In this document: piece after piece, positions 6,014 to 40,600 of the stretch | Position numbering within the stretch: the first letter of the stretch is position 1 | Layout of the letters: the number at the start of each line of letters is the position of its first letter | IMG/VR virus record: IMGVR_UViG_3300030433_001954 | Location: 1 to 56,379 of that record | From: a virus | Lineage: Duplodnaviria; Caudoviricetes | DNA length: 56,379 nucleotides | Strand: one strand, 5' to 3' | Notes under the pieces: generated by a model | What the model was told of the DNA's origin: nothing | Database searches by the model: none | The model's input: only the letters and a program-made list of their open reading frames with translations | Translations under genes and position numbers: made by a program

Positions 6014-9000
6014 ATGTCAGAAATTAAAAGAGTTAAAATCGATTCCATCCTAGAGAATCAGATTCCAGACTTTATGTCTGAAGAGTCTCCTCTTTTTGTT
6101 GAGTTTTTACGTCAATATTACAGGTCACTAGAGAGTAAATCTGGTGCAATTGATATTGCTGTAAATTTGAATCAGTATAAGGGCATTCAGTCCTTCAACA
6201 AGGAAACACTTGTTAAGAATACTACTCTGACAGAGGAAGTTTTAACTTATGATGATGAAATCTTGGTTGCATCTACGACTGGATGGCCAGATTCGTATGG
6301 TCTCTTAAAGATCGACGATGAAATCATCACTTATCTTGGAAAAACTGCTACAAGTTTTACTGGATGTATTAGAGGATTCAGTGGAATTGATGAAATTGAA
6401 GCCGTAGACAATAGAACGTTCTTAAGTTTTACAGAGACTGAAGCTGATGAACATGCGGATGGTTCTACTGTCCAAAATTTAAGTAATCTGTTCCTATTAT
6501 CATTCTTTGAAAAGTTCAAGTTTGAATTTTTCCCTGGATTTGAAAATAGAGACTTTTTTGAGAACATTTCTATTGATAATGTTCTTTCTAGTGCAAGAGA
6601 TTTCTATAATGCAAAGGGTACTGATAGTTCATACAAATTACTCTTCAAAATTTTATATGGAACTGAGGTAGAAGTTAGAAAACCACAAGATTTTACTCTT
6701 TCTCCATCTTCTAACGAATATTTTAAGACTGAAAACGTATTAGTAGAACTTATCACTCCAAATCCTGATATTTTGAGTATCAGAGGAGGATTCCTTTTCC
6801 AAGATCTTCCAGATGTTGGTGAAGTTGGTGCATCTATTTTCAATATTGAGTATAGACCTGTAAATCGCAAGGATTTCTTTGAAATTTCACTAGACCAAGA
6901 TTCCTTCACTGGTACTTTTCAGGTATCTGGTCAAACCAAATTAGTAGAAGACGTATCGGTAGGTGCTAACACTCTATTTGTAGATTCTACTATTGGATTT
7001 GCTCCTAGTGGAAAAATTTCGATCAAACCACCCGGCTCAAACTTCATTACTCTAGAGTATACTTCTAAGTCCACTACAACTCTTAATGGCGTTACTGGTT
7101 TAACTACATCTCTTGAAAGAGGACTAGAGATTCTTGAAGAAAAGTTTGCATATAGTTTTGTTGGTGCAGGAAATACTAGTAGAGTTGACTTTAGAATTGT
7201 AAACGTAATCAAAGATGTTGATTTTTCAAAAACCAGTGCTCTAGCAGTTGGTGATAAAGTTCAACTTTCTGGATTTGGAGAAAACCTATTTGATAAACCA
7301 CAATTTAATTGCTGGATTTCCAATGTTCCATCTGTACACACTGTTGATACTGTTAGTAGACAGGGTGTAAACGTTTATCGTCTTATCACATTTGATGAAG
7401 TCATTTATTATAAGAGAGAATCAGTCGTTCTTACTAATGATCTTGGTCAAGTATCTGGAGCTACAGTTCTTGATGTTGAATTTGAAGTTGGTGATCTAAT
7501 CAGAAAGTATACTAATAGTATTCTTATTCAAATCGATGACGCTTCATTTGATTTCAATAGAACTATTAAGTTAGAAAAGAAATTATTCAAGTTCAAACAA
7601 TTACTTAATTACTTTAACAACAACGAAGAATTTCCTGCAGGTATTCAAAACACATATATTGATACCAGTAGAGAAAACTTCTATGTAACCTCAACTGGTG
7701 TACCAAACAAGACAATTTTCTCAAATGATGAGAAGAGAACTGTCACAACTTCTGGTACCACTGGAATTACATCTATTTTTGATTCTCCTCAGCATGAATA
7801 CGTTAGTGGAGATTTGGTTTACTATGATCCTGTAGATTCTACAGTTTCTGGCATTGCTACTGGTAAGTATAGAGTATTCAAAGTCAACGAAAATAGCATT
7901 AAACTTGCATTTAGTAATTCTGATGTCTTTAACCAAAAGTTCATCTTTGCAAATCGTGGAATTACTGGTGATGAAGTCGTAAAAGCAGACTTCTTTGGTA
8001 AAAAGATTGAAAACCAGAAGTTAGTAAAAACTTTCCCATACTCAAAGGTACAGAAAAAGTCCGAAGATATTAATGATAAAACCACCGACAGCAAACCTGT
8101 TGGTCTTCTCGTTAATGGTACAGAGATTCTATCTCCAACTCTATTTGACGAGAACTATTATTATGGAAGGATTGAAGAGATTATTGTAACCAATAGTGGT
8201 TCAGATTATGATGTTTTAGATCCACCACCAGTCGAAGTTAAAGATGAATTTGGTAGTGGATGTAAAGCACATGCAAACCTTTCTGGTGGTCTTACAAGAG
8301 TTAAGATCATTTCTCCTGGTGTAGGTTATCAGTCTAAACCTAAGATTAAAATTTCTGGTGGTAATGGTAGTGGTGCTGTACTTGAGTCTAACCTTGTTAG
8401 TTCTAGAATTTCTGTTGGTTTCAAGGGTGATACTGGTGTATCTGTTGCTGACAACACCCTGACTACGATTGACGATGTTTTATTTGTAAATGGCGAAGAA
8501 GTAATTTATAGTACCAATAACAACACCGACGTTCTTGGAATCGTTAATGGATCTTCTTATTTTGTTGGTATTGTAACTGACAAAAAAGTAAAACTATACA
8601 ATAACAAACAAGATGCAGTTGCTGGTAATAATGAAATCCAGATTACTGGTATCTCCTCTGGTTTCCATGCACTAGAGAGTTTAAAGAATAAAAATACCAT
8701 TACTGAGATCTATGTAAATGATCCTGGTGATGGATATTCTAATAGAGCGATTAAAGTTCCTTCTGTTGTTTCCTCCGACAACAGAACTCTTGGTGTAAAC
8801 ACTTTTGACTCGTACATTTATGCAACAAATCATGGATTCCAAAATGCAGAATTTGTTGTTTATGAATATACTGACACTGAAATTTCTGGATTAGATACTA
8901 GTAAGTATTATCAAGTCACTAAGATTGATGATAACAAGTTCCGTCTATCTGATGCAGGAACTGCAAGTAGTACAACAGATTACAATTACATCAATAGAAA

Positions 9001-12000
9001 GTATGTTAAGTTTGAAAGTCTTGGTGTAGGAACTCATACTATTAAGTATCCACCAATTACAATTTCTATCGAATCTACTTCTGAACTCGAAAGTATTCCT
9101 GTAATCACTCCTGTGGTTAAACCAATTGTATTGGGACAGATTGATGATGTCTTCGTAGAAGATGGTGGTGTTGGATATGGTGTTACTGACATCATTAACT
9201 TCCACAGAAGACCAAACGTAGGTGTAGGTTCTATTCTTTCTAATGCGGTTCTCAAGCCCATTATTATTAATGGAAGTATTACTGACGTAAAAATCATTAA
9301 CAGAGGAAAAGGATATAGAGTTGACTCGGATATTATTGTTCAGGGCGATGGTGATTTTGCTCAGTTGGATCCTGTTGTGGATTCTGAGGGTAAACTTCAG
9401 TCAATTAATATCGTTAATGGTGGTATTGGTTACGGAAGTAGTAATACATTCTTATCAATTCAAAACAGGGGCATTAATGCCAAGTTTATTGCTAATGTCA
9501 AGAGGTGGAAAGTAAACCAAGTTATTAAGAAGAAGAATACAATTAGTCCAGATGATGATGGTGTACTCTATCCATCCTTCAATCCAAACTTTGGGCTCCA
9601 GTTCTTTACTTTCTATCCTTCTAAGGTTCTAAGATTTGAAACTCAGGATAACTTCAATATCCTAAACAAAGAAGCAACCACAAATCTTCAGCACTCGCCC
9701 ATTCTAGGTTTTGCATATGATGGTAACCCCATCTATGGACCTTATGGTTACGACAAACCTGAAGGTGGTCCAATTCGTAGAATGACATCCAGTTATACTA
9801 ATAACCCAACAGTCAATCCACAATTAAGACCTCCTCAACAACAGGGTTACTTTACTAATGACTATGTTTATGATGGTTCTGGAGATTTAGACGAACATAA
9901 TGGTAGATTCTGCGTAACTCCTCAGTTCCCAGATGGAACATATGCATATTTCTACACTGTTAGTGTTGACCAATCCCAAATTTCTACTCCTGTATATCCA
10001 TATCTGGTTGGTCCAAGTTTCTATGATAATCCAATTGCAAACAACTTCTTACCGACTTATAATCAAGATGATTCAACCATCTTTACTACTGATCTAGTAA
10101 GAAATGTTTCTAATTACTATCTAACTAATGCAAACTCCGATTATCCATACATTGATAGAGTTGGTGAATCTTTCAAACAGGAATTCCGTGTAACTGACAT
10201 TCAGACATCTTCTATTGAAAATGCAATTGTCTTTACTGCTGGTAAAAACTATAAGATTGATGATATTGTACAAATTGATAATGGAAATTCAGGAGGCGGT
10301 GGCGCATCGGTTTCTGTATCTGAACTTGGTGGTAAAGAAATTGAATCTGTTGGTGTTACTGAAACTGAAATTAATAATGTAGAATTTAGAATCAGAAGTA
10401 CAGAAATTGAAGCAATCTGTTCACAACCTCACAACATTGAGGATCTGGAAGATGTCTTTATTTCTGGAGTTTCCACTATTACTGCAAGAGCAATCAATGG
10501 TGTTAAAGAAGCTAGAGTTAAATCCAAGTCAACAGAACTTCTAGAAGATATTCTAGATACTGGAGCAACGGGAGTTTCTACGTTTATTAAAGTCAAGGAT
10601 ACTTCTGGATTTAAATCCAATGATTTTATTAGTGTCGATGGTGAAACACTATTAATCACTGGTGTTTCTTCTCAAAGATCTGGTTTCTATGTAAACCGAG
10701 TTAATAATACAGGTATTCATACTATTGGAGATGGTCTCGTAGCACTTCTACCAAATAGATTCTCATTCAGCATCGTTGGTGAGATTGATGATTATACTTT
10801 TGAAAATACAACAACATTCTTTGATCCAAAAGAAACGGTAGGTACTGGTGTTGCAGGTACCACTAGAACTGTTGTTGGATTTGGTACAACAAGTTTTGAA
10901 GACAGATTCGTCCCAACTAGAAGTATCTACATTCCAAATCATAACTTCTTTACTGGTGAAAAGGTAATCTATAATGTTGGTACAAATGGTGCTCCACTAT
11001 ATGTCAACAATGTTGGTGTTGCTCAATCTTTTGGATTGACCAATGGACAAGAACTTTATACAGTAAACTTGGGTCTCAATTACATTGGACTATCAACAGT
11101 CGGATTTACGACAAATAGTTCTGATGGTATTGGAACAACCAAAAACTCCCTTGAGTTCTGGCCTTTTGATGACCAGTTTGGTATTGTTGGTGCTGCACAT
11201 TCTCTAACTAAAACTAACCAAAGAATTACTGGTGATGTCTTCAGAAATATTGGCATTATTACAACCAAAACAGCACACGGACTTCAAATTGGTGATGACT
11301 TCAGACTGAAGTTTACTGGTACTACGACGGATAGTTATAAAATTAAACTTGACACTATCAATAGAAAGGTACTAGTTGATGATATTTCTTTTGCGGATTC
11401 TAAAGTTGATCTGACAACAAACTCTATTGATATTTCTGGGTATTCTAAGTACAAGAAACTCAAGACAGGTGATAAAGTTGTTTATTATGCAGCAACTCCA
11501 ATCACAGGACTATACAATGGAAAAACATATTATATTCTGAAAGACTCCACAGATAAGATCAAACTATGTGAGTTTGAAGCGGATATCAATACTACATCAG
11601 CGGTTGATCTGACTGCTGTTGGATCTGGAACTGCTCATATGTTCCATCTAATCAATCCACCTCTAGATTTCTTCAGAGGAACTATTATTGAGTTTGATGT
11701 TTCAGACACGACTCTTGCTCAACTTGATATGGTATTCTCTAAGGATGTCAATCTCACTAAGAGACTTGATCTTCTTGGAACTGACGTAGATGGTTTTGCT
11801 ATCGATAGAGATGGTCAACCTGGAACTGCAGATGCTAAGATTACTGTTGACACTAGAAGTAAGTTCGTACCAGATAGTTTCTTCTACACCTTAGTTCCTA
11901 AGGGTGCTGCAGAACAATATAAGAAAGAGATTTCTTCTGACGATAGTATTGTTTCCGCAAATAAGATTACAATCAAACCTCATGGTTTGAATGATGAATT

Positions 12001-15000
12001 TAGTGTTGTTGGTCTTTCTACAGATAATGACAAGAGACTTACATTCGTTGTTAGAAACCCCCTGAACATCGTTGAAAAATCCGTTATCGGTAATTCTACT
12101 TACGAGTATACTACGACCTCTCAGAACGTCACTGGACCTATCAGTAAGGTTAGAATTAACTTTGCTGGTAGAGGATATACAAAACTACCAACAGTTTCCA
12201 GTATTGTTTCTGCTGCTGGTACAGATGGTGTTGTTAGATTTGAATCTTCTACTATCGGTAGAGTTGAAAGTCTGGAGAGAATTAAGGATGGATTTGACTA
12301 TCCAACAGATCCTACTCTAACACCTACCCTGAGTGTTCCAACTGTTGCAGGTATTAAGAACATTAGAACAATTGATAGAGTTGCAATTTCTACAGGTGGT
12401 AATAATTATTCTAGTGCTCCTGAACTCGTAGTACCAGCAAAACCAACCATTAAACTTATTGCAGTTACTCAATTTGGTTCAGTTGTTGATGTTATTGTAG
12501 ATAAGAATGACACTGCACTTGCAGATCCACTCACAATTATTTCTACTCGCAATAGTAATGGATTTGATATTGATGAGGTTACTCATAGTAATGATGTAGT
12601 TACTTTTGAACTTAATAATGATCCAGAAGTTAATCCATTCATCACTCTTGGTTATGGTCAAACTGGATATACTTTCCCATTCGCAATCGGTGATGAAGTA
12701 TTTGTAGAAAACTGCAGACTAACTAAAAATTCTAGAATCGCTGGTGAGAATAACTTCAACTCCATTCAGTATGATTATGCATTCTATCCTGTAACGGGAG
12801 TAAGTACTCTTAATCAAACTGTTACATGTGATCTCACTGGAATTTCTACTGGAACTCTTGGTGATTATGATGGTGAAATTACTCAAGGAACCATCATCAA
12901 TAAAAAAGACATGCCTGTCTTTAATATGGTTCTCAGTGATGATGTTAGATATCAGTCTGGGGAGAAAGTTACTGCACAATTCTTCAGTGGTAACGTAATG
13001 GAGAATGGTTGGGACAATGATGTCAACCAAATCAGAATTAATAACTCTATCGGTAACTTGTTTGTCAATGATAAACTGAGAGGTGAAAACTCCAAGATTA
13101 TTGGAACTGTAGATTATTTTAATACTTTTACTTTGAAGGCAAATCTTGGCGTTTCTAGAACCAAGACTCAAATTGCAGATATGTCCTCTGGTATTCTAAA
13201 TGATTACCAACAAAGTATTTCTGATAACTATTACTTCCAGAAGTTCTCTTATGAACTGAAGTCTACTATCCCATATTCTACTTGGAAGGAATCTGTTAAA
13301 TCTATTGTCCACCCATCTGGATTTAAAGAGTTCTCCAACTATAACATTGAAACTCAACCAACACTTGCAGAAGTAACTTCTGGTATTGCGAAGTCTACTT
13401 CAATGAAAGTTACTCTTGCAAATACTGCACCTACTTTGAGTGTTAATATTGATAGTGAAATGAGTTTCTTTGATAAGACTAATTTTGGTCTTGTTTATGA
13501 AGATGAACCCCTTGCAGACGGAAGCGTTAAAAAAGTCTTCTTCCCTGAGGGTGTAGAACTACAACCATATATCATTAACAGAACGAATAAAGTTCTTGCA
13601 GTTGATGATATCTCAAGTCAGTTCGATGGAACTGTTACTCAACAACTTAGAGGTAGATATGCAGATGCTGCAGATTTACTTGGATTGAATAGAGAATTTA
13701 TTCAAGAAGAAGTTGTTGCTAAAGTTGAGTACAACTATCCAAATATTGGATTGAGTACAACTTATAGTAGAGAGAAGTGTTTAAGAGATACTGGATTTAT
13801 TGTCGATGCAGTTGCACATGACCTTAAGTATAATTCTAATAATAAGTCTGTCGAAGCAGGTTTAACCTATTGGGATGCAGGTGTTTCTTATGTTGCAAAT
13901 GAAACAGCCGAGACTCTTTATGCATATCACTATGTCAAGTTTATTGGTCAATATGTAATCAATAACCAAACTCCTCCTACTCTCTATCAGACTGCAGTCA
14001 AACAGAGATTTAACTTTGAGGTTATTGATGATCCAGCAAACTTCTATCTGAACAGAAACAAAGATTCCAGAGACCTGATTGTTTTCAACAAAGAAGAAAT
14101 TCTTGATAAGTCTCTCGCATCTGTTTCTAAGGAATATCCTAACTTCTACTTCCCTGGTTCTCCTCAGACTGAACCGAGGTCTAGATATCTTCGTTCCTAT
14201 GGAATGATTCAAAATAACAGACAGGAAATCATTGACGAGGCATGGGATGAAACAGTTCTAATCTATAATGGCATTAGTGATAAGGAAGATAAGTACAAAC
14301 GTGAAATGGGTAAACTGGTTGATGCAGTTTCCATTGACACATTCCTTGGTGGTAACACTTATACTAGAGATTTCTCTGGTTTCTATTTTGATGGTGCGGG
14401 TAATCCAATCACAGATCCAGAACGTACATTTGTTGGTGAAGAGGCACAAACCATCTATGCATTCAGTCAGGCTAGAATCTTCATGGAGAAGGCGGTTTCT
14501 AACCAACTAACCATTAAAGATCTAACCGCACCTGTTGGACCTTCCACTTATGGTGATGGTGGACCTAATGTTGCAATTACATCTACTGCTGCTTGTGCAG
14601 ACGTTCAACAAACTCTTACAACTCTAACTCAAATTACAGTTGACGTAATTTCTGCTGGATCTACGATTGGTTTACCAACTGCAAATGTTGGAACGTACAC
14701 CACAGGTGGTCTGAAGTGTCGTCGCGATCTTCAATACATTGTTGATGGTGTTGCACAGGACATTGCATATGACACTAATCAACATACAGTAAGAAATACC
14801 AAGTTCTATTTCAAACCAGATGGTACTCAAAAACTTGATGGTCTTATTGGTGAAGAAAATGAATCTATCTACATCTTCGAGTCCTCTGCGGACTATATGC
14901 AAGATGCAATCACCAATCAACTGAACTATAAGGATCTAAGAATTCCTATTGATCCAGTAACTGGTGTAAACACTGATCCTAGCAATTACGCTGACATCCA

Positions 15001-18000
15001 AGCTGATATTGATACCTTAGTCGGTATTCTAACAGTTGCAATTGGAAACAGCAGTCTTGCAGGAATTCCTACAGTTGGATTTGGTACTGCAGATTGTGCC
15101 GATGTAAGACAATCTCTTGCAAATTATGTTGGAATTATTACTGGAATTATTGGATTTGGTACAGCTGTTGCACCAGAAATTTATTATCCTTCTAAGACTA
15201 GAGGTGGAATTGCAGTTGGACTATCCACATTCAGACTTAAGAATAATAACACAAGTCTATTCAAGCATGTCTTCAGTGAGGGTGCATTTGATATCGCCAA
15301 CAACATTATTAACATTGCTAACCACAATTTCCAAACTGGTCAAGAACTTCTCTTTGTTAAGGAGAATGGTGATGACGTTGGCATCGGAACAACTTCTTTC
15401 GTCGAAGATGCAACTCTCGATGTTGTAATGAACATCTCTGATACCTTCGGTGGTACGGCAGTTCTTGAAAATGGATATAACGTTGCAATCTCTGGAACCA
15501 TTAGTGGTATTTCTACAACATCTGTAGTTGATGCAGACTCCACAACACAATTTGTTCAGTGTATTGGATCTAATGGTGGTACTGGAACAGACGCAGAGTT
15601 TAGAGTATCAATTAACTATGATGGTTCTGGTGTTCCTATCTCCACATCCATTCAACCAACAGCGGGTGGTAGTGGATACGCAGTAGGTGATACAATCACA
15701 ATTGCTGGAACGCAGATGCAAGCAGCGTCTCCTGCAAACGACTTGACTTTCGTTGTTACTAAGACTGGACCTTCTGCAGTCGCTACTCAGGCAAATCAAT
15801 CTTACTCTAATGTCACTGCAGGAACTGATCCTGCTGGTGGTACTGGTGCAATCTTCAATGTCACCAGAGGTTCTTCTGGATACATCAGCGAAGTTGAGGT
15901 TGTTAATGGTGGTTCTGGTTATGCGTCTACATCTGTAATTACAATCGCTCAGGCTGGTATCGGTGGTACAGATTCTACGGATGACATTACAGTTACCCCA
16001 ACATTATTGGGTACGAAGACTATGCCTTCGACGGTATATTGCTTCAAGGTTACTGATAATCAGATCAAACTATTTGGTCTATCTACCACTGCAACTTTCA
16101 TCGATGTAACTGATGTCGGTGTTGGTACTTATAGTGTTGAGTATAAGGATCCAAATGCAAGTGCAATTATTACCATTGATGGTATCATTCAGACTCCACT
16201 GAGATTTAAGTCTCTAAGTGTAGATCTTAAGAATTCTATTGGATCTGCGACTACCACAATTGCTAAACTTGCTACTGGAGTTTCTTCTGTTAGAACTAAT
16301 GATGTTCTGAATATTGGTGCAGAATATGCACTTATTAAGTCTATCGGAGTCGGCGCAACTAATGAAGTTGTTCTGGAAAGAGGTTCATTTGGAACACCTG
16401 CTGCAGCACATACAGTTGGAGCAGCAGTAACAGTTCTAACAGGTGACTTCAACATTGTTGGTGATGTCATTCACTTCTCATCCCCACCATTCGGTAAGAT
16501 TGGACCTGCAGGTCTACAGACTGGTTCTATCTTTGGTGGTAGAGTCTTCAGTAGAACTTTTGATGCAGCTAAACCAGAAGATAAGAATATTCTATTCGAT
16601 GACCTTTCTCTAGCTTTCACTGGTGTTGCTGCAACTGAATTTGCAATTAAGTCTCAAAATCAGACGACAACAACAATCTTCAACGATGTAAACTCTGCTG
16701 TTGATATCAACAACAATCCTATCGTACTGATTAACAATGTACCACAGGATCCAATCGTTGATTATACAGTTGATGGACCTTCTGTGAACACTCTGAAGTT
16801 CCTCTCTGGAGTACCAAAGGCTGGTAAGATTTCCAAAGTTGAAATCACCAACAGCTTTGGATATGAACCAAAGATTGGCGCAGCTGCAACAGTCACCATC
16901 GATGATTTTGGTCAAATTGACACTATTACAATCAACGAAGGTGGTGCTGGATATCAGTCTGCACCTGATGTCAGTATTGCGTCCACAATCGGATATGGAG
17001 CAACAATCACTGCAACAGTCAGTGCTGCTGGTACAGTAAATGGACTGACAATCGTAAATGCAGGAACTGGATTCACTGGAACATCTCTACCAGAAATCAG
17101 AATTGGTATTCCAACAGGATATAGTAATCTGACCGCAGAATATACTGGCGGAACCAGTGGTGATGGACAAGATGCACGTCTTTCTGTAGTTGTTGGCCAG
17201 GGTTCCAGTGTCGTTGACTTTAAGATTGATAATCCTGGTATTGGATACAAGGTTGGTGATGTTATCAAGGCATCTGGTCTTATTGAAGGTTCTGGATTTA
17301 GAACTGATTCTCTATCGATTACAAACCTAGTCTATGATGAGACTACTGGATTCACAACCATTACAACTGGTTCTGCACATAATCTATCTGTTCTTGATAA
17401 TGTAAGAATTACTGGTGTTGGTTTGACTTGTGGATATGACGAAGTTGGTATTAAGTCCTTCACGTATGATAATGTAACTGGTATTTGCACAGTAACTACC
17501 TGGGATCCACATGGTGTTCTTACCTCTGATGTTGAGAGAAGACTTACACCTTCGACTGCAACTTATTGTCCACATACTGGATTTACCACACTTACAGTTT
17601 ATGGACACAGCCTGGAAGAAGGAGACTTCATCAGACTAGAAGATAATTCACTCACATTTACTTGTGCTCTTGATGGTCATGCAACACAACATACATATCC
17701 AAGATCCACTGATCCAGCTGCTGGTAAGTTCCTAGAGATTACGGATGTCACTGGTGATGAAGTTACAATCAATGTTGGTTCAGGTGGAACGGATACAAGC
17801 GCACATACATTTGTAAGTGCAACTGCTAATGCGATTACAGTTAAGGGTCTTAAGTCTAATCAGACTGCTGATGAAGTTTATCTCCACAACGTCAAGTTCC
17901 TTTGCACTGAAGAACATGCGGGCGTAACTACAGACATCTTCCCAGATGGAACTGCTCCATATGGTTTTGTCTTCCCTGCAATCTCCTCTCCAGGTGTAAC

Positions 18001-21000
18001 TACCTTCACAATGCAGGCAGGTGTTTCTACGATTCCTCATGTATTCGCAGGTTACACTGAACTGGGTATCTCCACATTCAACTACTCACAAAACTCTGGT
18101 GTTTGTGTTATTGAAACTCATGATGCACACCACCTGGTTGCAAATGAGTGGGTAACTCTTGCAGATCTCAAACTGAAGTGTACTGATGCAAATTATGATA
18201 ACTATGCAGGCATTACCTCAACCCTGTTCCCATATCGTGCAGGCGTAAACACTTATGGTGATGCATATCCTGCATCTTCTCCATCTGGTTTCTCCTTCAA
18301 GGTCACTCAGGTTGATGATGCAAATACTTTCCGAGTTAATGCAGGTATTTCCACAATCGTACACGCATACGAAGGATTTGGTGCGGTTCCTCTATATGGA
18401 TTTGATTATACCGAGTCTGTTGGTGTTACTACAATCACTCTCACCGAAGATCATGATCTTTCCGTTGGTGATTGGGTAAATCTGAAAGACATCATTCTAA
18501 ATTGCCCTGCACATGCAACTGGAATTACAACTTACAATGTAACTGCACTCGATTATAATGAAGTCGTTGGTATTGTCACTATTACTACAGATGCTGCTCA
18601 TGGACAAACAGTTGATGATTATGTAAGACTTGCAGATATCTTCTTGACATGTACTGCGGAACACGCTGGATTCTCTTCCACTAAGTTCCCATATCCTGCA
18701 GGTACTGATGACTATGGTGATGCATATCCTGCATCTTCTCCTAATGCACTATCTGGAACCTATGATACATTTAAGTTGATGGCAGGAACCACTGGATCCA
18801 CCATGGTAATTAACATCGGTGTTTCCACAATCCCACATTCTTATGATACTGGTGGTACTGCAAGCGTTGGTTTCACTACGAATAAGTTCCCATACGAAGG
18901 TTCTTCCCCACATGGAAGTACGTTCAAGGTTGATGCAGTTGGATCTACAACTTCTTTCACTTTCAATGCAGGTATTTCTACCATCGCACACGACTATGTT
19001 TCTGGTGGTACTGCACAAAGAGTCGGTATGACTCAGAAGGTACCAAGTGTACAGAGAGTTCTAAGATATACTGAAGATAGTACTGATGGAGCACTAGACT
19101 TCCTGGTCACCAAGGTTAATAGTTCCACTCAATACACAGTAAAAGCTGGAGTCAATACGATTCCACACTTCTATACTGCAAACACGGGCGTAACAACCTT
19201 CAGACAATTTGAAGAGTTCCAACTCAAGATCACTGAAGTTCAAACCGACAAGTTCTTTGGATTCTATCCTGGTCAATTCATTGCTTTCAACAGCATTGAG
19301 GATCAGTTCAACGGATTCAAGAAGAAGTTTACTTTGAGTGCAAATGTTGATGGTGTCAAGAAGATTCTTTCCCTGAGAGTTCCTGATGGAAGTGATCTAG
19401 ATGTTACCAATAACATCTTCATCTATCTGAATGATGTTCTTCAAGTCCCAGGTGTTGCATATGAGTTTAGAGGATCCAGAATCTTCTTCACTGAGGCACC
19501 ACTTGAGGGATCCAGTTGCAGTATCCTTTACTACAGAGGTTCTTCTTCAGACGTTGAAGAAATTGATCCACCTAAGACTATTAAAGTTGGTGATCAAATT
19601 CAAATTAACGAAAGTCGTCTTGACGCTTATGACATTGATCAGTTTGATAGAACGGTACAAAAGATCGTTGCTACTGATCAACTAGAAACCTTTGTTTATG
19701 GTAGTATCGGAATTGATACCAATACAGATAAACGTAGACCTGTGACTTGGAGAAAACAGAGGAATGATAAGATCATTACTGGAGCACTATTCCCCAAATC
19801 TAGACCTCAATATACATCCGTAATCAGACCAAGTGCAACTATTATCAATGAGATTCAACCAGGTGACACTACAATTTACGTAGATAATGCATATCCAGTC
19901 TTTAGTGATTTGGATAACTTGAATGAGAACATTAGAGACATTTTGATCATCGAGGATAAAGAAACAGAAAGTGCCGTTGCGGTTGCAAATGTTTCTACTT
20001 CTTCCAGCATCACCTCCATTGGAGTATCCAGTGGTGGAGTTGGTTATGCAAATACTTTAAGTCCAATCGTAACAATTTCTGCTTCCGCAATCACAAGAAA
20101 AGATCCTATCTTTAACTGGGAAGGCGGAACCATTAGTGGAATCACTGGTATTACAACTTACACTATTTTCAATCACATTGATAAGGGAACTGCACAGAGA
20201 AGATTTGTTGCAGTTGGTAATAGTTCACTATTTGCATCTTCACTTGATCTCGAAACATGGTCTGCTTCTGAAATCGTCACGGGCGCGGGCAATACGTACC
20301 ACTTCAATTCCGTAGTTTCTACGGGTCTTGGAAATACTGATCATGTTGTTGCAGTCGGTCAATCCGCAATGATCTGGAAAGCAACTGCATCGGATACCGC
20401 AGTTACTTCGTTTGAAAGACTCCCAATCTTTGAACAACAATCTCTCGCAGGATTTGGTGTTATTAATACCAATCTGACTACGTTCACGGATACGATCAAT
20501 GATATTATCTACGAACCACTAAATGACAAGTACGTTGCAGTTGGTGCAGGTGGTTCTGCGTTCGTTGCAACTGGTATTGGATCTACGTGTTTCTTCAACA
20601 GATACACTGGAATTCTTAATAACATTAATGCAGTCGCACATAGTCCACAACTTGGATATTTTGTTGGTGTTTGTAGTGGAGGTAAGATTATTAATTCTTC
20701 TACCGCAGAAATTTGGTCACAGAATCCAACTCCAACAATTAGGAACTTGGAATGTGTTATTTGGGATGGATCTAATTTCATTGCCGCGGGCGAAAATGCA
20801 ACAATTGTTAAGTCGGTTACCAGAGAACAATACGTTGTTGTCAACAATAATATCGGTGCTTCTAACAGAATTGTTGATCTTCAATATCATAATGATCTAT
20901 ATGTTGCAATCACTGATAGTGGAAAACTCTACTACTCCTTTGACCTTGCTGTTTGGGACGAGAGGGGAACTAAACAAAATAATGACTTGAAAACTATCTT

Positions 21001-21850
21001 CCATGATGTAGGATTCTCTACAGATGGTGCATTTATTGCCGCGGGCGCCGGCGCGACTGCAATCTATGCAACACCAATTACACACAGAGCGACCGCAGAA
21101 TCTTCTGTTCAGAATGGAATTGTAACCAGCATCACGGTTACTGATGGTGGTTTTGGATATTCTCAAAGTAATGTTCCATCCGTTATGGTTCAATCTGACA
21201 CTTACAAGTTTGAGAATATTAGATCTATCAAGGCACAAGGTGATCACGGCGTAATTGTTGGTGTTAATACTTTCCTCGCGGGCACGCCTGGAATTGGAAC
21301 CACTTCGCCTAAGATTGAGTTTGTTCTAAAATCTGAACAATATGATAACGGAACCCTAGGTGTTGGTTATTCCGCACTAAATGATTATGGAGTCACCGCA
21401 TCTCAGATCAGCAAGGGAGATTACTTCGTCATCACCGATAGTAATGTTGGAATCGGTACTCAACTCACGGGTATTTCCACACTCTCTGGTGGTATGGCTA
21501 ATTACCCCGCATCTGTTGTCGGTACAGCGAAGAGTTTCCTTGATGGTGTATATCGTGCGGATTTCGTAACACCTGCTTCTGCGGGTATCGTAACCGTAAC
21601 ATGTCACTTCGTTCCATCTCTCGGAGACAACAACAACTTTGTTCAAGTCTACGCAAGAGGTGAGGACTTCAGTGGTATTGGTACCAATGAGTTCTATGGT
21701 AGATATTCATGGGGTAAGATCTATGATTATCAAAATAGAGCACTTACAACACTGAATCCTGTGAACTTTGATTCTTATCGTGATAATGGTCTAACTGGAC
21801 TGAGCACTTCACCTAAAGTATTCAGAACAAGGGGACTATTAAGTCCATAA
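6014..21850 (+). CDS. gp7: giant baseplate wedge initiator gp7-like protein with many inserted domains (5278 aa)
   Basis: N-terminal QIPDFM.EESPLFVEFLRQYY and FYNAKGTDSSYKLLFKILYG; DNYYFQKFSYELKS..WKESVKSIVHPSGFKEF; lies between gp6 and gp8. Confidence 0.88.
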   Translation: MSEIKRVKIDSILENQIPDFMSEESPLFVEFLRQYYRSLESKSGAIDIAVNLNQYKGIQSFNKETLVKNTTLTEEVLTYDDEILVASTTGWPDSYGLLKIDDEIITYLGKTATSFTGCIRGFSGIDEIEAVDNRTFLSFTETEADEHADGSTVQNLSNLFLLSFFEKFKFEFFPGFENRDFFENISIDNVLSSARDFYNAKGTDSSYKLLFKILYGTEVEVRKPQDFTLSPSSNEYFKTENVLVELITPNPDILSIRGGFLFQDLPDVGEVGASIFNIEYRPVNRKDFFEISLDQDSFTGTFQVSGQTKLVEDVSVGANTLFVDSTIGFAPSGKISIKPPGSNFITLEYTSKSTTTLNGVTGLTTSLERGLEILEEKFAYSFVGAGNTSRVDFRIVNVIKDVDFSKTSALAVGDKVQLSGFGENLFDKPQFNCWISNVPSVHTVDTVSRQGVNVYRLITFDEVIYYKRESVVLTNDLGQVSGATVLDVEFEVGDLIRKYTNSILIQIDDASFDFNRTIKLEKKLFKFKQLLNYFNNNEEFPAGIQNTYIDTSRENFYVTSTGVPNKTIFSNDEKRTVTTSGTTGITSIFDSPQHEYVSGDLVYYDPVDSTVSGIATGKYRVFKVNENSIKLAFSNSDVFNQKFIFANRGITGDEVVKADFFGKKIENQKLVKTFPYSKVQKKSEDINDKTTDSKPVGLLVNGTEILSPTLFDENYYYGRIEEIIVTNSGSDYDVLDPPPVEVKDEFGSGCKAHANLSGGLTRVKIISPGVGYQSKPKIKISGGNGSGAVLESNLVSSRISVGFKGDTGVSVADNTLTTIDDVLFVNGEEVIYSTNNNTDVLGIVNGSSYFVGIVTDKKVKLYNNKQDAVAGNNEIQITGISSGFHALESLKNKNTITEIYVNDPGDGYSNRAIKVPSVVSSDNRTLGVNTFDSYIYATNHGFQNAEFVVYEYTDTEISGLDTSKYYQVTKIDDNKFRLSDAGTASSTTDYNYINRKYVKFESLGVGTHTIKYPPITISIESTSELESIPVITPVVKPIVLGQIDDVFVEDGGVGYGVTDIINFHRRPNVGVGSILSNAVLKPIIINGSITDVKIINRGKGYRVDSDIIVQGDGDFAQLDPVVDSEGKLQSINIVNGGIGYGSSNTFLSIQNRGINAKFIANVKRWKVNQVIKKKNTISPDDDGVLYPSFNPNFGLQFFTFYPSKVLRFETQDNFNILNKEATTNLQHSPILGFAYDGNPIYGPYGYDKPEGGPIRRMTSSYTNNPTVNPQLRPPQQQGYFTNDYVYDGSGDLDEHNGRFCVTPQFPDGTYAYFYTVSVDQSQISTPVYPYLVGPSFYDNPIANNFLPTYNQDDSTIFTTDLVRNVSNYYLTNANSDYPYIDRVGESFKQEFRVTDIQTSSIENAIVFTAGKNYKIDDIVQIDNGNSGGGGASVSVSELGGKEIESVGVTETEINNVEFRIRSTEIEAICSQPHNIEDLEDVFISGVSTITARAINGVKEARVKSKSTELLEDILDTGATGVSTFIKVKDTSGFKSNDFISVDGETLLITGVSSQRSGFYVNRVNNTGIHTIGDGLVALLPNRFSFSIVGEIDDYTFENTTTFFDPKETVGTGVAGTTRTVVGFGTTSFEDRFVPTRSIYIPNHNFFTGEKVIYNVGTNGAPLYVNNVGVAQSFGLTNGQELYTVNLGLNYIGLSTVGFTTNSSDGIGTTKNSLEFWPFDDQFGIVGAAHSLTKTNQRITGDVFRNIGIITTKTAHGLQIGDDFRLKFTGTTTDSYKIKLDTINRKVLVDDISFADSKVDLTTNSIDISGYSKYKKLKTGDKVVYYAATPITGLYNGKTYYILKDSTDKIKLCEFEADINTTSAVDLTAVGSGTAHMFHLINPPLDFFRGTIIEFDVSDTTLAQLDMVFSKDVNLTKRLDLLGTDVDGFAIDRDGQPGTADAKITVDTRSKFVPDSFFYTLVPKGAAEQYKKEISSDDSIVSANKITIKPHGLNDEFSVVGLSTDNDKRLTFVVRNPLNIVEKSVIGNSTYEYTTTSQNVTGPISKVRINFAGRGYTKLPTVSSIVSAAGTDGVVRFESSTIGRVESLERIKDGFDYPTDPTLTPTLSVPTVAGIKNIRTIDRVAISTGGNNYSSAPELVVPAKPTIKLIAVTQFGSVVDVIVDKNDTALADPLTIISTRNSNGFDIDEVTHSNDVVTFELNNDPEVNPFITLGYGQTGYTFPFAIGDEVFVENCRLTKNSRIAGENNFNSIQYDYAFYPVTGVSTLNQTVTCDLTGISTGTLGDYDGEITQGTIINKKDMPVFNMVLSDDVRYQSGEKVTAQFFSGNVMENGWDNDVNQIRINNSIGNLFVNDKLRGENSKIIGTVDYFNTFTLKANLGVSRTKTQIADMSSGILNDYQQSISDNYYFQKFSYELKSTIPYSTWKESVKSIVHPSGFKEFSNYNIETQPTLAEVTSGIAKSTSMKVTLANTAPTLSVNIDSEMSFFDKTNFGLVYEDEPLADGSVKKVFFPEGVELQPYIINRTNKVLAVDDISSQFDGTVTQQLRGRYADAADLLGLNREFIQEEVVAKVEYNYPNIGLSTTYSREKCLRDTGFIVDAVAHDLKYNSNNKSVEAGLTYWDAGVSYVANETAETLYAYHYVKFIGQYVINNQTPPTLYQTAVKQRFNFEVIDDPANFYLNRNKDSRDLIVFNKEEILDKSLASVSKEYPNFYFPGSPQTEPRSRYLRSYGMIQNNRQEIIDEAWDETVLIYNGISDKEDKYKREMGKLVDAVSIDTFLGGNTYTRDFSGFYFDGAGNPITDPERTFVGEEAQTIYAFSQARIFMEKAVSNQLTIKDLTAPVGPSTYGDGGPNVAITSTAACADVQQTLTTLTQITVDVISAGSTIGLPTANVGTYTTGGLKCRRDLQYIVDGVAQDIAYDTNQHTVRNTKFYFKPDGTQKLDGLIGEENESIYIFESSADYMQDAITNQLNYKDLRIPIDPVTGVNTDPSNYADIQADIDTLVGILTVAIGNSSLAGIPTVGFGTADCADVRQSLANYVGIITGIIGFGTAVAPEIYYPSKTRGGIAVGLSTFRLKNNNTSLFKHVFSEGAFDIANNIINIANHNFQTGQELLFVKENGDDVGIGTTSFVEDATLDVVMNISDTFGGTAVLENGYNVAISGTISGISTTSVVDADSTTQFVQCIGSNGGTGTDAEFRVSINYDGSGVPISTSIQPTAGGSGYAVGDTITIAGTQMQAASPANDLTFVVTKTGPSAVATQANQSYSNVTAGTDPAGGTGAIFNVTRGSSGYISEVEVVNGGSGYASTSVITIAQAGIGGTDSTDDITVTPTLLGTKTMPSTVYCFKVTDNQIKLFGLSTTATFIDVTDVGVGTYSVEYKDPNASAIITIDGIIQTPLRFKSLSVDLKNSIGSATTTIAKLATGVSSVRTNDVLNIGAEYALIKSIGVGATNEVVLERGSFGTPAAAHTVGAAVTVLTGDFNIVGDVIHFSSPPFGKIGPAGLQTGSIFGGRVFSRTFDAAKPEDKNILFDDLSLAFTGVAATEFAIKSQNQTTTTIFNDVNSAVDINNNPIVLINNVPQDPIVDYTVDGPSVNTLKFLSGVPKAGKISKVEITNSFGYEPKIGAAATVTIDDFGQIDTITINEGGAGYQSAPDVSIASTIGYGATITATVSAAGTVNGLTIVNAGTGFTGTSLPEIRIGIPTGYSNLTAEYTGGTSGDGQDARLSVVVGQGSSVVDFKIDNPGIGYKVGDVIKASGLIEGSGFRTDSLSITNLVYDETTGFTTITTGSAHNLSVLDNVRITGVGLTCGYDEVGIKSFTYDNVTGICTVTTWDPHGVLTSDVERRLTPSTATYCPHTGFTTLTVYGHSLEEGDFIRLEDNSLTFTCALDGHATQHTYPRSTDPAAGKFLEITDVTGDEVTINVGSGGTDTSAHTFVSATANAITVKGLKSNQTADEVYLHNVKFLCTEEHAGVTTDIFPDGTAPYGFVFPAISSPGVTTFTMQAGVSTIPHVFAGYTELGISTFNYSQNSGVCVIETHDAHHLVANEWVTLADLKLKCTDANYDNYAGITSTLFPYRAGVNTYGDAYPASSPSGFSFKVTQVDDANTFRVNAGISTIVHAYEGFGAVPLYGFDYTESVGVTTITLTEDHDLSVGDWVNLKDIILNCPAHATGITTYNVTALDYNEVVGIVTITTDAAHGQTVDDYVRLADIFLTCTAEHAGFSSTKFPYPAGTDDYGDAYPASSPNALSGTYDTFKLMAGTTGSTMVINIGVSTIPHSYDTGGTASVGFTTNKFPYEGSSPHGSTFKVDAVGSTTSFTFNAGISTIAHDYVSGGTAQRVGMTQKVPSVQRVLRYTEDSTDGALDFLVTKVNSSTQYTVKAGVNTIPHFYTANTGVTTFRQFEEFQLKITEVQTDKFFGFYPGQFIAFNSIEDQFNGFKKKFTLSANVDGVKKILSLRVPDGSDLDVTNNIFIYLNDVLQVPGVAYEFRGSRIFFTEAPLEGSSCSILYYRGSSSDVEEIDPPKTIKVGDQIQINESRLDAYDIDQFDRTVQKIVATDQLETFVYGSIGIDTNTDKRRPVTWRKQRNDKIITGALFPKSRPQYTSVIRPSATIINEIQPGDTTIYVDNAYPVFSDLDNLNENIRDILIIEDKETESAVAVANVSTSSSITSIGVSSGGVGYANTLSPIVTISASAITRKDPIFNWEGGTISGITGITTYTIFNHIDKGTAQRRFVAVGNSSLFASSLDLETWSASEIVTGAGNTYHFNSVVSTGLGNTDHVVAVGQSAMIWKATASDTAVTSFERLPIFEQQSLAGFGVINTNLTTFTDTINDIIYEPLNDKYVAVGAGGSAFVATGIGSTCFFNRYTGILNNINAVAHSPQLGYFVGVCSGGKIINSSTAEIWSQNPTPTIRNLECVIWDGSNFIAAGENATIVKSVTREQYVVVNNNIGASNRIVDLQYHNDLYVAITDSGKLYYSFDLAVWDERGTKQNNDLKTIFHDVGFSTDGAFIAAGAGATAIYATPITHRATAESSVQNGIVTSITVTDGGFGYSQSNVPSVMVQSDTYKFENIRSIKAQGDHGVIVGVNTFLAGTPGIGTTSPKIEFVLKSEQYDNGTLGVGYSALNDYGVTASQISKGDYFVITDSNVGIGTQLTGISTLSGGMANYPASVVGTAKSFLDGVYRADFVTPASAGIVTVTCHFVPSLGDNNNFVQVYARGEDFSGIGTNEFYGRYSWGKIYDYQNRALTTLNPVNFDSYRDNGLTGLSTSPKVFRTRGLLSP
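13649..15154 (+). other. cassette of three nested phycobiliprotein-like helical domains inside gp7
   Basis: KCLRD (Cys codon 13778), KYKRE (14294), ACADV (14594), KCRRD (14717), DCADVRQSLANY (15095); colinear with 40401-41969. Confidence 0.65.
18254..18741 (+). repeat. 29-bp perfect direct repeat within the gp7 His/Cys repeat region
   Basis: TATGGTGATGCATATCCTGCATCTTCTCC at 18254-18282 and 18713-18741. Confidence 0.9.
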
Positions 21851-37619: not shown

Positions 37620-40600
37620 ATGACCAAGCAGGTACAGCTAAGACGAGGTTCGCACTCGCAACATTCTACATTTACGGGTGCTGTTGGCGAACCAACGATC
37701 GATACAACTAATGTAGTAATCGTTATCCATGATGGAGTGACCGCAGGCGGTCATAGCATGGTCGGTGAAAAATCTGTCCAAGATATTGTTAATAAACGTT
37801 CGATTGCGATTGGAAAATCAGAAGCGTCTGATACACAAGACGCTCAACTAGATGTATTGGGTAATACTTTAGTTTCGGATGATGTTGATACTGGTGGATT
37901 AAGAGTTCTATACAGAGCTCCATTAGTAAGAACTGGTTTTACTAGTGCAACTTCAAGTACTCTTGTCACTTTATCGACAGCTACAGATATCAGAACAGGT
38001 TGGGGAGTTACTTCTGGTAATGTTACTGTTGGTACACAAATTCTAGATGTAGACGTAGCTACAGGAATTGTAACCCTTACTGATTTAACTACAGATTCTA
38101 CAGTAGAATATTCAGATGCCTACTTTGTAGTAGCAAATGGTAGAGTTATTGGTGGTATTGCTACTGATAGTTTAGAAGTAGGAGATATTGTTGAAGATCC
38201 AGATGATCTCTTATTCTTCAGTGGAACTACAATTACTGAAATTAGAGATGAAGAAATCGTCATCAGTGGAAACACTGCAGGAACTACAACTGGTGTTAGT
38301 ACCTTTAGTTGTACTGGTACTGCTGGTGGAACGACTCTTACATTAAGTGATACATCCAGTTTAACTGATGGAGATCTTCTCCTAGGTGATGAAGTTTTCA
38401 TTCCAGATAATTGTACTATTACAAATGTTGATAGTAACACTCAGATTACAATTAGTGCTGCACTACTTGATAGTGGAACAAACAATGTTGCTTTTGCATC
38501 ACCAGTAACAATCAAACACGTTGCAACTGGTATCGAAAATGAGTATGAATTCTTCTATCCTGATAGTGGTATTGCAACTATCACTAGAGCCTATATTAAT
38601 GATGCGGTAATTGATACTCTTAATATCACCACTCTGAATGGTGGAGATCTTCAATTACAAACAACTACTACCAATATTGCTAACATCAACGTTGGTATTA
38701 ATACATATGCATTTATTGGCACTTCTTATGTTGATGAAGCAAATCTAAATGTTGCAATTACAACAAGTGCTTTTATTAGTTCTTCTTATATTAGTACTTC
38801 CTACGTCAATGTTGGAATCACTACTGATGCATTTATCGGTACTGCATTTGTTGATAATGCAAATCTGAACATTGGTATTCAAACCTTTGCGTTTATTTCG
38901 ACTTCATATGTTGATGAACAGAATGTAAATCTTGGTCTTGCAACTGACTATACTTTCCAGACTAGTAGAAATATCCTTGGTCTAACTGATGTTGGTATTA
39001 CTACCACTCAGTTTACAAATGTAGAATATGTAGATACCGCAAATATTAACCTTGGTATCTCCACTCTTGCAAGAATGTTTGATGCTCTTGCAGATAATAT
39101 CAACATTGACGTTGGTATTGCATCTTACTTCAATGCAGGATTTGCTGGTATTGATACCGCACAAATCAAGACTGGTTTCGGTACATTCTTCAATATCGAG
39201 AACTCTACAATCGATAGTCTGTTTGTTGCAACTGGTATTGGTTCAACAACATTCGCAACCGAGTCTTATGTAGATCAAGGTTATATCAATGTCGGTATTA
39301 TGACCGAAGTTGGTATTACAACCGCTAATATTGATAATGCAAATATCGATGTTGGTATCACTTCAGTAGGATTTGCAAATACAACGTATACAGATCATGA
39401 AAATGTAAACGTTGGATTTACGACAACTGCATATCTTGATACTGCAAATATTAATGTAGGTATTGGTACAACTGTTGGTATTGCAAGTTTCAGAGCCGAA
39501 ACTGCATATATCGATGTTGGTATTGCAACCCAGATGACAGTCACAACACAGATTGTCTCTGTAGGTCAGGCAACAACCTCCTTTACAGAAGAAGATTACG
39601 TTAATCTGTCCAATGTAAACACTGGGCTCACAACGATGTCCTTTGTTGAGACGGAATATGTCAATCTGTCTAACGTAAATGTTGGTATTGGTACAACTCT
39701 ATTCCAAGAACTTTCTTACACCGATACTGGATATGTAAGATCTGGTATTAACACATATCTCGATGTAACTGGAATTGGTTCGGTTCAAGATCTTAAGGCT
39801 GCAGTTGGTGTTATTACACAACTTTCTGGTACAGATCTAAACTTCACTGGATTCTCAACTATCGGTCAATTTACTGCAGGTGTTGGTAATACTGATGTTA
39901 TTGTTAATGGTGATTTCAGAGTTTCTGGTCTCGTAACCTTTGGCCAAGGTGATGTAACTATTAATGATGATGGTGACATCTATAATATTGGCACTTTGAT
40001 GGCACCAGTTGGTGTTATCACCAATATGTCTGGTACCAACCTCAATTACACTGGTATTTCTACGATTGGTGTTGCATCTGCATCCCAAGTTACCATTACT
40101 GGACAAAATACACAACTTAACCAAGATAAGTCGGTCAGAATCAAACTATCTAATGCAGGTATTGCATCTGACTACGACTTCATTCTACCTTCTAAACTTG
40201 GTAGTCCTGGTCAGTTACTTGCAATTCAAACTGACGGAACACTAGGTTTCACCACCAACGGCGCAGGTCTGTTTGAATCAAGATACTACGTTTCCGAACA
40301 GAATGGTTCTGATGACTTCGATGGTAGGGCACTTCCTGTTGCATCTATTAAGAAGGCGACACAACTTGCATCTTTCGACTCCTTCGTTATTCCTGGTCAG
40401 AGATACCTCGATGCAGGTGACCTGATTGAGAACAACGTAGACTTCATTGTTGAAGAAGCATTTGGTGCTCTAGAATTCAACTATGAGAATCTCACCACTG
40501 ATTATCCAGAATATAATAGAAATGACTGGAAGGACAAGATTGTTCTACTCCTAGAAAACCTCCAGTATGACATTAGATTCGGTGGTAATAGTAAAGCTGT

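Follow-up and report, generated by a model that had tools for sequence, protein, structure and literature searches.

Candidate bilin-binding, phycobiliprotein-type domains in a giant gp7-like baseplate protein of a cyanomyovirus

Can a baseplate protein of a phage harbor domains of the phycobiliprotein type, and could such domains carry pigment on the virion? This question is raised by the IMG/VR virus record IMGVR_UViG_3300030433_001954, a 56-kb fragment (56,379 nucleotides, 28% complete) of a T4-like Synechococcus myovirus, which was analysed over its whole length and is called the window below. A preliminary description had marked a helical island of three related units at 13649-15154, in baseplate gp7, and had proposed that these units are co-opted phycobiliprotein domains with bilin-site cysteines. 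All peptides that it quoted (RYADAADLLGLNREFIQEEVVAKVEYNYPNI...REKCLRDTGFIVDAVAHDLKY, KYKRE, ACADV, KCRRD, NYADI and DCADVRQSLANYVGII) were recovered at this place, in the frame of the giant open reading frame (ORF) 6014..21850. We propose that three phycobiliprotein-type (bilin-binding globin) domains, inserted as a cassette in the gp7 baseplate wedge protein, make up the island and that its units with an intact CxRD motif are loaded with bilin; for this proposal as a whole, the chances appear about evenly divided. The units very probably descend from, or are very closely related to, bilin-binding globins, because fold and motif are shared with these and the motif sits at a corresponding position in the equivalent helix. 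The units with intact CxRD are predicted biliproteins, a prediction that we hold with roughly balanced confidence.

A phage-specific family of phycobiliprotein-type units

When the 502-aa island was searched against 1.84 billion representative proteins (50% clustering), 857 proteins were found at E<=0.001, most of them 1000-8000 aa long and with up to 34 separately matched stretches. Iterated HMMER with the best 150 of these 857 homologous giant proteins yielded a 125-position unit profile (1622 copies). The unit is a module of ~105-170 aa that is repeated up to ~36 times per protein and occurs in baseplate and tail-fibre proteins; judged by their sequences, the units constitute a large phage-specific family. 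Their core corresponds to phycobiliprotein helix A/B, a loop and helices E, F and G, many copies add an H-like helix, and the X/Y helices are absent. Over ~1500 copies, Cys41 (96%), Arg43 (96%), Asp44 (99%), Asp55 (99%) and Tyr71 (99%) are conserved, Asn14, Asn61 and Thr86 reach ~80% each, and C-x-R-D is intact in 1412 of 1516 copies. This near-invariant Cys-x-Arg-Asp sits where phycobiliproteins attach and hold the Cys84 bilin. An intra-unit disulfide was ruled out, as exactly one Cys is found in 1276 of 1655 units (77%). From 5.8 billion sequences, to which the E-values are scaled, the unit profile retrieved no more than 25 short fragments, all belonging to this family, and no phycobiliprotein. 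Matches of 164 aa were considered as free globins and rejected, being gene fragments.

The conserved residues tend to be lost as a set. Compared with copies that possess Cys41, the 40 copies without it show less Arg43 (55% vs 97%), Asp44 (65% vs 100%), Tyr71 (68% vs 100%) and Thr86 (47% vs 80%) and no matching drop in Asn61 (82% vs 81%) or Asp55 (93% vs 99%), although the copies are not phylogenetically independent and the significance of these counts is therefore overstated. Phe, Tyr or Trp replaces Cys41 in 21 of the 40. From the sequences, the decayed units look as if a binding site had been given up in its entirety and an aromatic residue had taken its space. The window fits this pattern, with Y-K-R-E in unit 2 of the gp7-like ORF and W-K-D-K together with Tyr71 to Leu in unit 1' of a second giant ORF (Table 1).

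Phycobiliproteins were the relatives found by several comparisons. Scanned singly, 21 of 143 diverse units matched the Pfam family PF00502 (E<=10; best 6e-5), and each of 67 other Pfam families was matched by at most 2 of the 143. Two of three homologous giant proteins also matched PF00502, below the Pfam gathering score of 22.2 bits (17.2 and 16.8 bits, E 0.005 and 0.007). Across the phage units PF00502 is enriched, but strict membership in this Pfam family does not hold for the window's own units. A profile of the 143 units was searched against 177,635 PDB sequences, and 35 of the 37 matches at E<=10 were phycobiliproteins. In the best of them (CpcA 8iml_A, E 0.0014), unit positions 5-60 align to residues 39-104 and the unit Cys falls on Cys84, within KCARDIGYY. 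Profile-profile alignment (hhalign) of the units with CpcA/CpcB of Acaryochloris marina (reference genes from plasmid NC_009928) gave a probability of 90.7% and P 1.3e-6 in the same register as the PDB profile search, and an independent alignment of 220 extended units gave a probability of 92.0%. As controls, the reversed phycobiliprotein alignment reached P 0.057 and ten column shuffles P 0.22-0.92.

The fold points in the same direction. AlphaFold2 (AF2) without an alignment produced a model with a predicted local distance difference test score (pLDDT) of 30.9, which was discarded. With phage units only as alignment and no templates, unit 1 was predicted as five helices (pLDDT 92.0; predicted template modelling score 0.87). 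In a Foldseek search of the PDB with this model, all matches listed (ranks 1-48) were phycobiliproteins, engineered smURFP or one 'Bacterial fluorescent protein', and they include phycoerythrin beta, cryptophyte beta subunits, C-phycocyanin alpha and smURFP. Among these listed matches, the query-normalised template modelling score (TM) is 0.56-0.70 (0.44-0.45 in two rows), the probability 0.99-1.00 and the aligned length 106-131 columns, with a best root-mean-square deviation of 2.9-3.0 A over 106-117 columns. By model and Foldseek, unit 1 thus has the globin-type all-helical phycobiliprotein fold. The AlphaFold and Foldseek comparison proposed in the preliminary description therefore came out in favor of phycobiliprotein-type chains. 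Its assignment of the units to phycobiliprotein-type globin domains agrees with the PF00502 enrichment, the PDB profile search, hhalign and the template-free model, and the central-site position that it gave to the (K)CxRD Cys is supported, as this Cys aligns on Cys84 with Arg86 and Asp87 conserved.

With phycobiliproteins (PF00502; C-phycocyanin alpha and beta, phycoerythrin beta), the units have in common the globin-type helical fold and K-C-x-R-D-x-G-Y at the Cys84 position, and in some units a Cys ahead of the final helix may mark a beta-like G-H loop. In contrast to phycobiliproteins, they are tandem domains in virion proteins of 2000-8000 aa and not free subunits of 160-180 aa, and without X/Y helices neither an alpha-beta heterodimer nor an (alpha-beta)3 ring is expected. 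Furthermore, the window units fall below the Pfam threshold, and the invariant Asp55 and Tyr71 have no counterpart in the aligned phycocyanin.

A parallel outside the antenna is offered by the bilin biosynthesis-associated globins (BBAGs; Rockwell, Martin & Lagarias, 2023; PMC10151467). According to the accessible part of that source, CXRD is the bilin-binding motif of phycobiliproteins and of the self-assembling BBAG-1 and BBAG-3, whose bilin binding needs no lyase, its Arg and Asp being bilin-contacting residues in phycobiliproteins, and BBAG-2 globins bind biliverdin without CXRD. BBAGs and phage units can both be described as distant phycobiliprotein paralogues outside the antenna, CXRD is present in BBAG-1 and BBAG-3 as in the units, and BBAGs, too, are found with heme oxygenase and bilin reductase genes (PMC10151467). 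This likeness is drawn from their descriptions. As portrayed in the same part of the source, BBAGs are small, cellular and reductase-adjacent, whereas the phage units are repeats in structural proteins. In the 270-kb phage contig G011, for instance, the units lie at 53-59 kb and the reductase at 197 kb.

A second Cys deserves attention since its candidate counterpart, the beta-153/155 site, is the one loaded by T-type lyases, CpcT and CpeT among them (for beta-153, see the accessible part of PMC10452541). An extended profile from the E-like to the H-like helix found 711 full-length copies in 144 proteins, and a Cys stands immediately ahead of the H-like helix in 22% of 788 copies. The kind with an H-like helix includes units 2 and 3 of the window. 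The CADV helices had been considered as helix A of the next unit, which was set aside given the distinct H-like helix in the 711 copies. For the 174 units with the second Cys, the local alignment covers CpcB residues 80-170 (P 0.0015, probability 16%). When they are aligned globally, this Cys falls on the GDCS Cys of CpcB and 'DP.TG' on 'DPNG' at a probability of 7%, and the G-H part alone is not significant against CpcB (P 0.16). The earlier reading of this Cys as beta-155-like thus has the global alignment in its favor, but lacks significance and would concern 22% of the units with an H-like helix; from sequence, a likeness to beta-153/155 is plausible.

Cassettes in two giant structural ORFs of the window

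The island lies in an ORF that is assigned as gp7-like by its T4-type domain and its gene position (Table 1). Its N- and C-terminal parts match phrog_2885 'baseplate wedge subunit' (E 0 and 2e-154), and PF23786 Baseplate_wedge was found at aa 2375-2442 (E 4.7e-8), directly upstream of the island. S-SCSM2R is the nearest named relative of the window (92.3% nucleotide identity across the queried 3 kb), and its counterpart of the ORF has two baseplate wedge genes on one side and a gene for a baseplate protein on the other. Because of these matches and this synteny, the ORF is taken to encode a gp7-like protein. T4 gp7 has a length of ~1030 aa. The gene order is shared with T4, and the flanking parts of the window ORF match PF23786 and phrog_2885; in contrast, the window ORF is five times longer, the helical cassette, a YHYH domain and other inserts are additions, and the cassette's unit is, among phage isolates, seen only in cyanophages.

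The three related units of the island were recovered by the profile (E-values in Table 1); their pairwise likeness is weak, and self-BLASTP did not detect an internal repeat. The helical nature claimed for the island is supported for unit 1, the part that the AF2 model covers. Both giant ORFs follow a common layout, in which a short-type unit and a helical linker are followed by two longer units, each with a loop and an extra helix behind it, and by a D-C terminal helix. A Cys at the 82/84 site within C-x-R-D is present in units 1 and 3 of the gp7-like ORF and in units 2' and 3' of the second ORF. As had been noted from the letters, the two kinds of Cys are lost independently between units (Y2761 with C2861; C2902 with Y2992). 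Overall, 4 of 6 Cys sites have been kept by the window lineage in gp7, and in the second protein 5 of 6. In relatives at 34-65% identity, each of the six cassette sites that is covered by the alignment holds a Cys, except in P0060 (Trp at the first) and L226 (Thr at the fifth). At the terminal-helix site, Cys is present in all 11 of 16 relatives whose alignment extends that far.

Table 1. Giant ORFs of the window and the features of their three-unit cassettes.
Feature	Coordinates	Strand	Evidence and remarks
Giant ORF assigned as gp7-like baseplate wedge protein, 5278 aa, bears the island	6014..21850	+	phrog_2885, PF23786, PF14240, synteny
Unit 1, aa 2546-2672, short type without H-like helix	13649..14029	+	Profile E 2.7e-42; CxRD intact (KCLRD), Cys2589 codon 13778-13780
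Unit 2, aa 2722-2838 core plus H-like helix	14177..14659	+	Profile E 1.9e-22; end of H-like helix placed by inference from the sequence; CxRD decayed to YKRE (Tyr2761, 14294-14296), second-site Cys2861 (ACADV, 14594-14596) retained
Unit 3, aa 2891-2975 core plus H-like helix	14684..15049	+	Profile E 5.6e-17; CxRD intact (KCRRD; Cys2902, 14717-14719), second site now Tyr2992 (NYADI, 14987-14989)
Terminal helix DCADVRQSLANYVGII	15089..15154	+	Cys3028 (15095-15097), third 'Cys before a helix' site
Second giant structural ORF, 3404 aa, same three-unit cassette	37620..47834	+	ORF list, six-frame profile scan
Cassette of second ORF	40398..41957	+	Profile E 1.9e-18, 5.3e-26, 1.1e-17
Unit 1' of second ORF	40398-40751	+	Motif decayed to W-K-D-K (Trp970); Tyr71 to Leu
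Unit 2' of second ORF	40968-41291	+	KCKRD (Cys1156) and SCANV (Cys1245)
Unit 3' of second ORF	41520-41753	+	KCARD (Cys1305) and SCSTT (Cys1395)
Terminal helix DCTDV of second ORF	within 40398..41957	+	Cys1431

Some further features of these proteins were observed. The YHYH domain PF14240 (E 8e-25) lies inside the baseplate protein at window 9668-9967 (aa 1219-1318 of the gp7-like ORF), and the Acaryochloris plasmid NC_009928 also has an annotated YHYH protein. Elsewhere in the family, a divergent unit type without CxRD (e.g. ...SSFFEQYVRTAVDGVEADL...) occurs in P0167, P0174-P0178, L017:6191-6586 and L032:7211-7618; it comes after a conserved N-terminal beta-like segment (MAE..IPLNSFKSVLTTLTGD) and also ends some repeat arrays. 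In the homologous giant proteins P0012 and P0113, the arrays are bounded by a conserved N-terminus (…GELAINSADGKLF…) and a C-terminus of ~90 aa (…GDFRIG…TP..LAL), and the C-terminal piece by itself has matches in many tail-fibre-like proteins of cyanophages, among them that of P-SSM2. A 956-aa ORF at window 51691-54561 (+) is extremely rich in Lys, Glu and Arg, with Cys pairs scattered through it; at the same place, the strand composition of the window is at its most anomalous (52-54 kb: AT skew 0.35, GC skew 0.20).

Distribution of the units and of bilin genes

The units follow cyanophages among phage isolates. Unit 1 was compared by tblastn with 50,697 phage records, and the 390 matches carry the names Synechococcus (322), Cyanophage (57), Prochlorococcus (10) and Marine (1), with the siphovirus S-SKS1 among them. 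The canonical eight-unit protein found 193 matches in the same records, all of them Synechococcus or Prochlorococcus phages, 'Cyanophage' or 'Marine virus'. An equal frequency in phages of other hosts, which would have spoken against the proposal of the preliminary description, is thus not seen among isolates, where all 390 and all 193 matches are cyanophages or uncultured marine viruses. A motif-pattern search of IMG/VR confirmed at least 586 stretches.

Among 185,579 GTDB species genomes, the unit was detected at 9 loci in only 6 metagenome-assembled genomes (MAGs), all non-cyanobacterial. T4-type gp23 is present in 4 of the 5 unit-bearing GTDB assemblies tested, and in one of them units and gp23 share a 335-kb contig. 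Given this co-presence, the loci were read as mis-binned phage contigs and the units were rejected as bacterial genes. The GTDB MAGs labelled Rhodobacteraceae, Crocinitomicaceae, Neomarinimicrobiota and Chitinophagales (L066-L074; G001-G005) bear T4-type major capsid genes, one such bin has nine gp23 matches, and these MAGs appear contaminated with phage contigs.

Bilin genes accompany the units in part of the family. A set of 27 unit-rich contigs of at least 64 kb, five of them rated at least 96% complete, has no psbA or psbD; a ferredoxin-dependent bilin reductase was found in 7, heme oxygenase in 7 and CpeT in 4 of the 27. In 4 of 5 near-complete unit-rich metagenomic genomes, heme oxygenase and bilin reductase form an overlapping gene pair, and one of these genomes has CpeT too. 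The pairs lie at G011:C1:197155-198278, G019:C1:243389-244533, G020:C1:78448-79546 and G025:C1:95819-96926 (L164-L167); their genomes are near-complete, measure 207-274 kb and have no psbA/psbD, and the reductases are 39-64% mutually identical. They resemble the overlapping hemO-pcyX cassettes in the part of PMC11480375 accessible to us, which leaves open the purpose of bilin genes in phages of presumed non-cyanobacterial hosts and names a bilin-binding globin as one possibility. For the one contig tested (G011), the capsid is nearest to those of Flavobacterium phage immuto and Microcystis phage Mel-JY01 (51-52% identity), and units were not found in either phage. Four capsid-related phages without units lack the bilin reductase. 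G015, with a completeness rating of 96%, contains units but lacks bilin genes; its 2778-aa unit protein is also that of G011, so G015 may be a fragment of a larger genome.

Among six isolates (Table 2), CpeT is present in all four with units and in neither of the two without. P-SSM2 (AY939844.2, W03) had been expected to carry cpeT, but no CpeT match was found in its record. Units share a genome with heme oxygenase and reductase in 4 of 5 near-complete metagenomic phages, P-HM1 and P-HM2, but are not adjacent to these genes. Phage bilin genes (hemO with pcyX, pebS or pcyA; CpeT) are thus found in the same genomes as units in several lineages; the former encode enzymes, while the units would be the acceptor. 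The co-occurrence with cpeT, ho1 and reductase genes, for which the preliminary description had proposed a test, is seen in several lineages and is incomplete in both directions.

Table 2. Units and bilin genes in six cyanophage isolates.
Isolate	Units	CpeT	Bilin reductase	Heme oxygenase
S-SCSM2R	+	+	-	-
S-PM2	10	+	-	-
P-HM1	5	+	+	+
P-HM2	5	+	+	+
P-SSM2	0	-	+	+
P-SSP7	0	-	-	-

Bilin-loaded units, their alternatives and what they would mean

In the mechanism that we propose, a bilin from the host, or from the phage heme oxygenase and bilin reductase, would be linked by a thioether to the CxRD Cys. This reaction would precede assembly and occur inside the infected cell, with the unit loading itself as BBAGs do or with a lyase, for instance the phage CpeT, catalysing the step. 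Baseplate and fibres would thereby carry chromophores, which might render the adsorption apparatus light-responsive and so explain the light-dependent adsorption of cyanomyoviruses. According to the accessible part of PMC6628666, P-HM1 and P-HM2 fail to adsorb in darkness and S-PM2 needs light for adsorption independently of host photosynthesis, whereas P-SSM2 and P-SSP7 adsorb in the dark; the light dependence was ascribed there to unknown light-sensitive receptors or tail fibres. Units are present in all three light-dependent adsorbers and in neither of the two dark adsorbers, a match that speaks for the proposal but is only suggestive. A light-responsive adsorption apparatus based on the putative chromophores seems to us rather doubtful. 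The wider idea is unlikely, namely that cyanophage particles are photoreceptors in which bilin-loaded units gate adsorption or baseplate triggering and that hemO, pebS, pcyA/pcyX and cpeT serve at least partly to pigment the virion and not the host antenna, including in T4-like phages without psbA.

Several observations weigh against bilin-loaded units of phycobiliprotein origin. The window island with its flanks (P0003) has no PF00502 match at E<=1, a single-sequence phmmer search of the island against the PDB gave only a chance match to PerR (E 1), and no Foldseek PDB match reached E<=0.001 (best 0.015, range 0.015-0.17). The X/Y helices are missing in that the alignments begin at phycobiliprotein residue 36-39 and the model at the corresponding helix. 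Masking the nine KCxRDxGYY columns removes the hhalign signal (P 0.25) and leaves the register unchanged; therefore, the sequence evidence essentially amounts to this 9-residue motif. The CxRD motif is lost in 2 of the 6 window units (unit 2 and unit 1'), and of the six Cys sites in gp7 two are lost in the window lineage and three in S-SCSM2R; thus, single Cys sites appear dispensable. P-SSM2 has heme oxygenase and bilin reductase yet no units, and bilin enzymes therefore also serve something besides the units; conversely, S-SCSM2R and S-PM2 have units and neither enzyme. In a search that began with the reductase, units were present in just 12 of 49 viral records (most records are fragments) and in just 2 of 8 new records at least 70% complete; among records at least 90% complete the count was 5 of 6, but four of these five were the query sources, which makes the test partly circular. 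Units and bilin genes are truly linked in several lineages, with host and ancestry as confounders. The match between units and light-dependent adsorption covers only five phages and is confounded by phylogeny and shared hosts. Finally, we know of no report of pigmented cyanophage particles.

Many of these points would also fit an apo structural module, that is, an anciently captured phycobiliprotein-derived bundle that is now a rigid spacer or rod without chromophore and has kept C-x-R-D for folding (helix cap, salt bridge). Arrays of up to 36 units resemble length-setting rods, units without the motif are still kept in the window's proteins, Cys sites are being lost in its lineage, many unit-bearing phages have no bilin enzymes, and P-SSM2 has the enzymes and no units. 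We regard such a module as possible rather than probable, since there is no obvious structural reason for a single unpaired Cys in 96% of ~1500 copies of an extracellular protein, and since Cys, Arg, Asp, Tyr71 and Thr86 are lost as a group while other conserved residues remain. Bulky aromatics in place of Cys in 21 of 40 copies look as if they filled a cavity, and the Arg and Asp of CXRD are those that contact the bilin in phycobiliproteins (PMC10151467, accessible part).

The conserved Cys might also serve another chemistry, such as a virion-stabilising inter-chain or inter-unit disulfide or another ligand (heme, biliverdin only, metal). The even number of Cys in the ancestral three-unit cassette, six, would suit pairing, and BBAG-2 globins bind biliverdin without CXRD (PMC10151467, accessible part); with exactly one Cys in 77% of the units, the window pair partners lost singly (Y2761/C2861; C2902/Y2992) so that an unpaired Cys is left, and a motif that is a bilin motif and not a heme or metal motif, we consider this quite improbable. 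The chance that the units share no descent with phycobiliproteins at all and are generic helical bundles that converged on KCxRDxGY is smaller still. The loss of the profile-profile signal on masking, the Foldseek E-values of only 0.015-0.17 and an ESM Atlas feature search (uninformative; recognition 1583) without a phycobilisome cluster speak for convergence. It does not account as readily for a template-free model whose listed PDB matches are all of the phycobiliprotein type, for a motif at the equivalent point of the equivalent helix, for a register that survives masking, or for the alignment of the subfamily with an H-like helix to CpcB residues 80-170 (P 0.0015).

A description of such domains in phage structural proteins was not found in the literature searched, with subscription journals and supplements outside the search, and nothing on a phycobiliprotein-like domain was found in the cryo-EM literature on gp7. 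If bilins are attached to the intact-CxRD units, this would be the first pigment-bearing phage virion, and the units would form a very large new branch of biliproteins (857 representative proteins with up to ~36 sites each) and might yield small fluorescent tags. Without attached bilin, the units would still represent an unreported exaptation of the antenna protein fold as a cyanophage-restricted building block of the virion. The finding bears on the question why light is required for the adsorption of some cyanomyoviruses even though host photosynthesis is not, and on the role of phage bilin genes and CpeT, most sharply where hosts have little or no phycobilisome or are non-cyanobacterial. 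It also bears on the range of the bilin-binding globin family beyond antennae, as outlined in the accessible part of PMC10151467.

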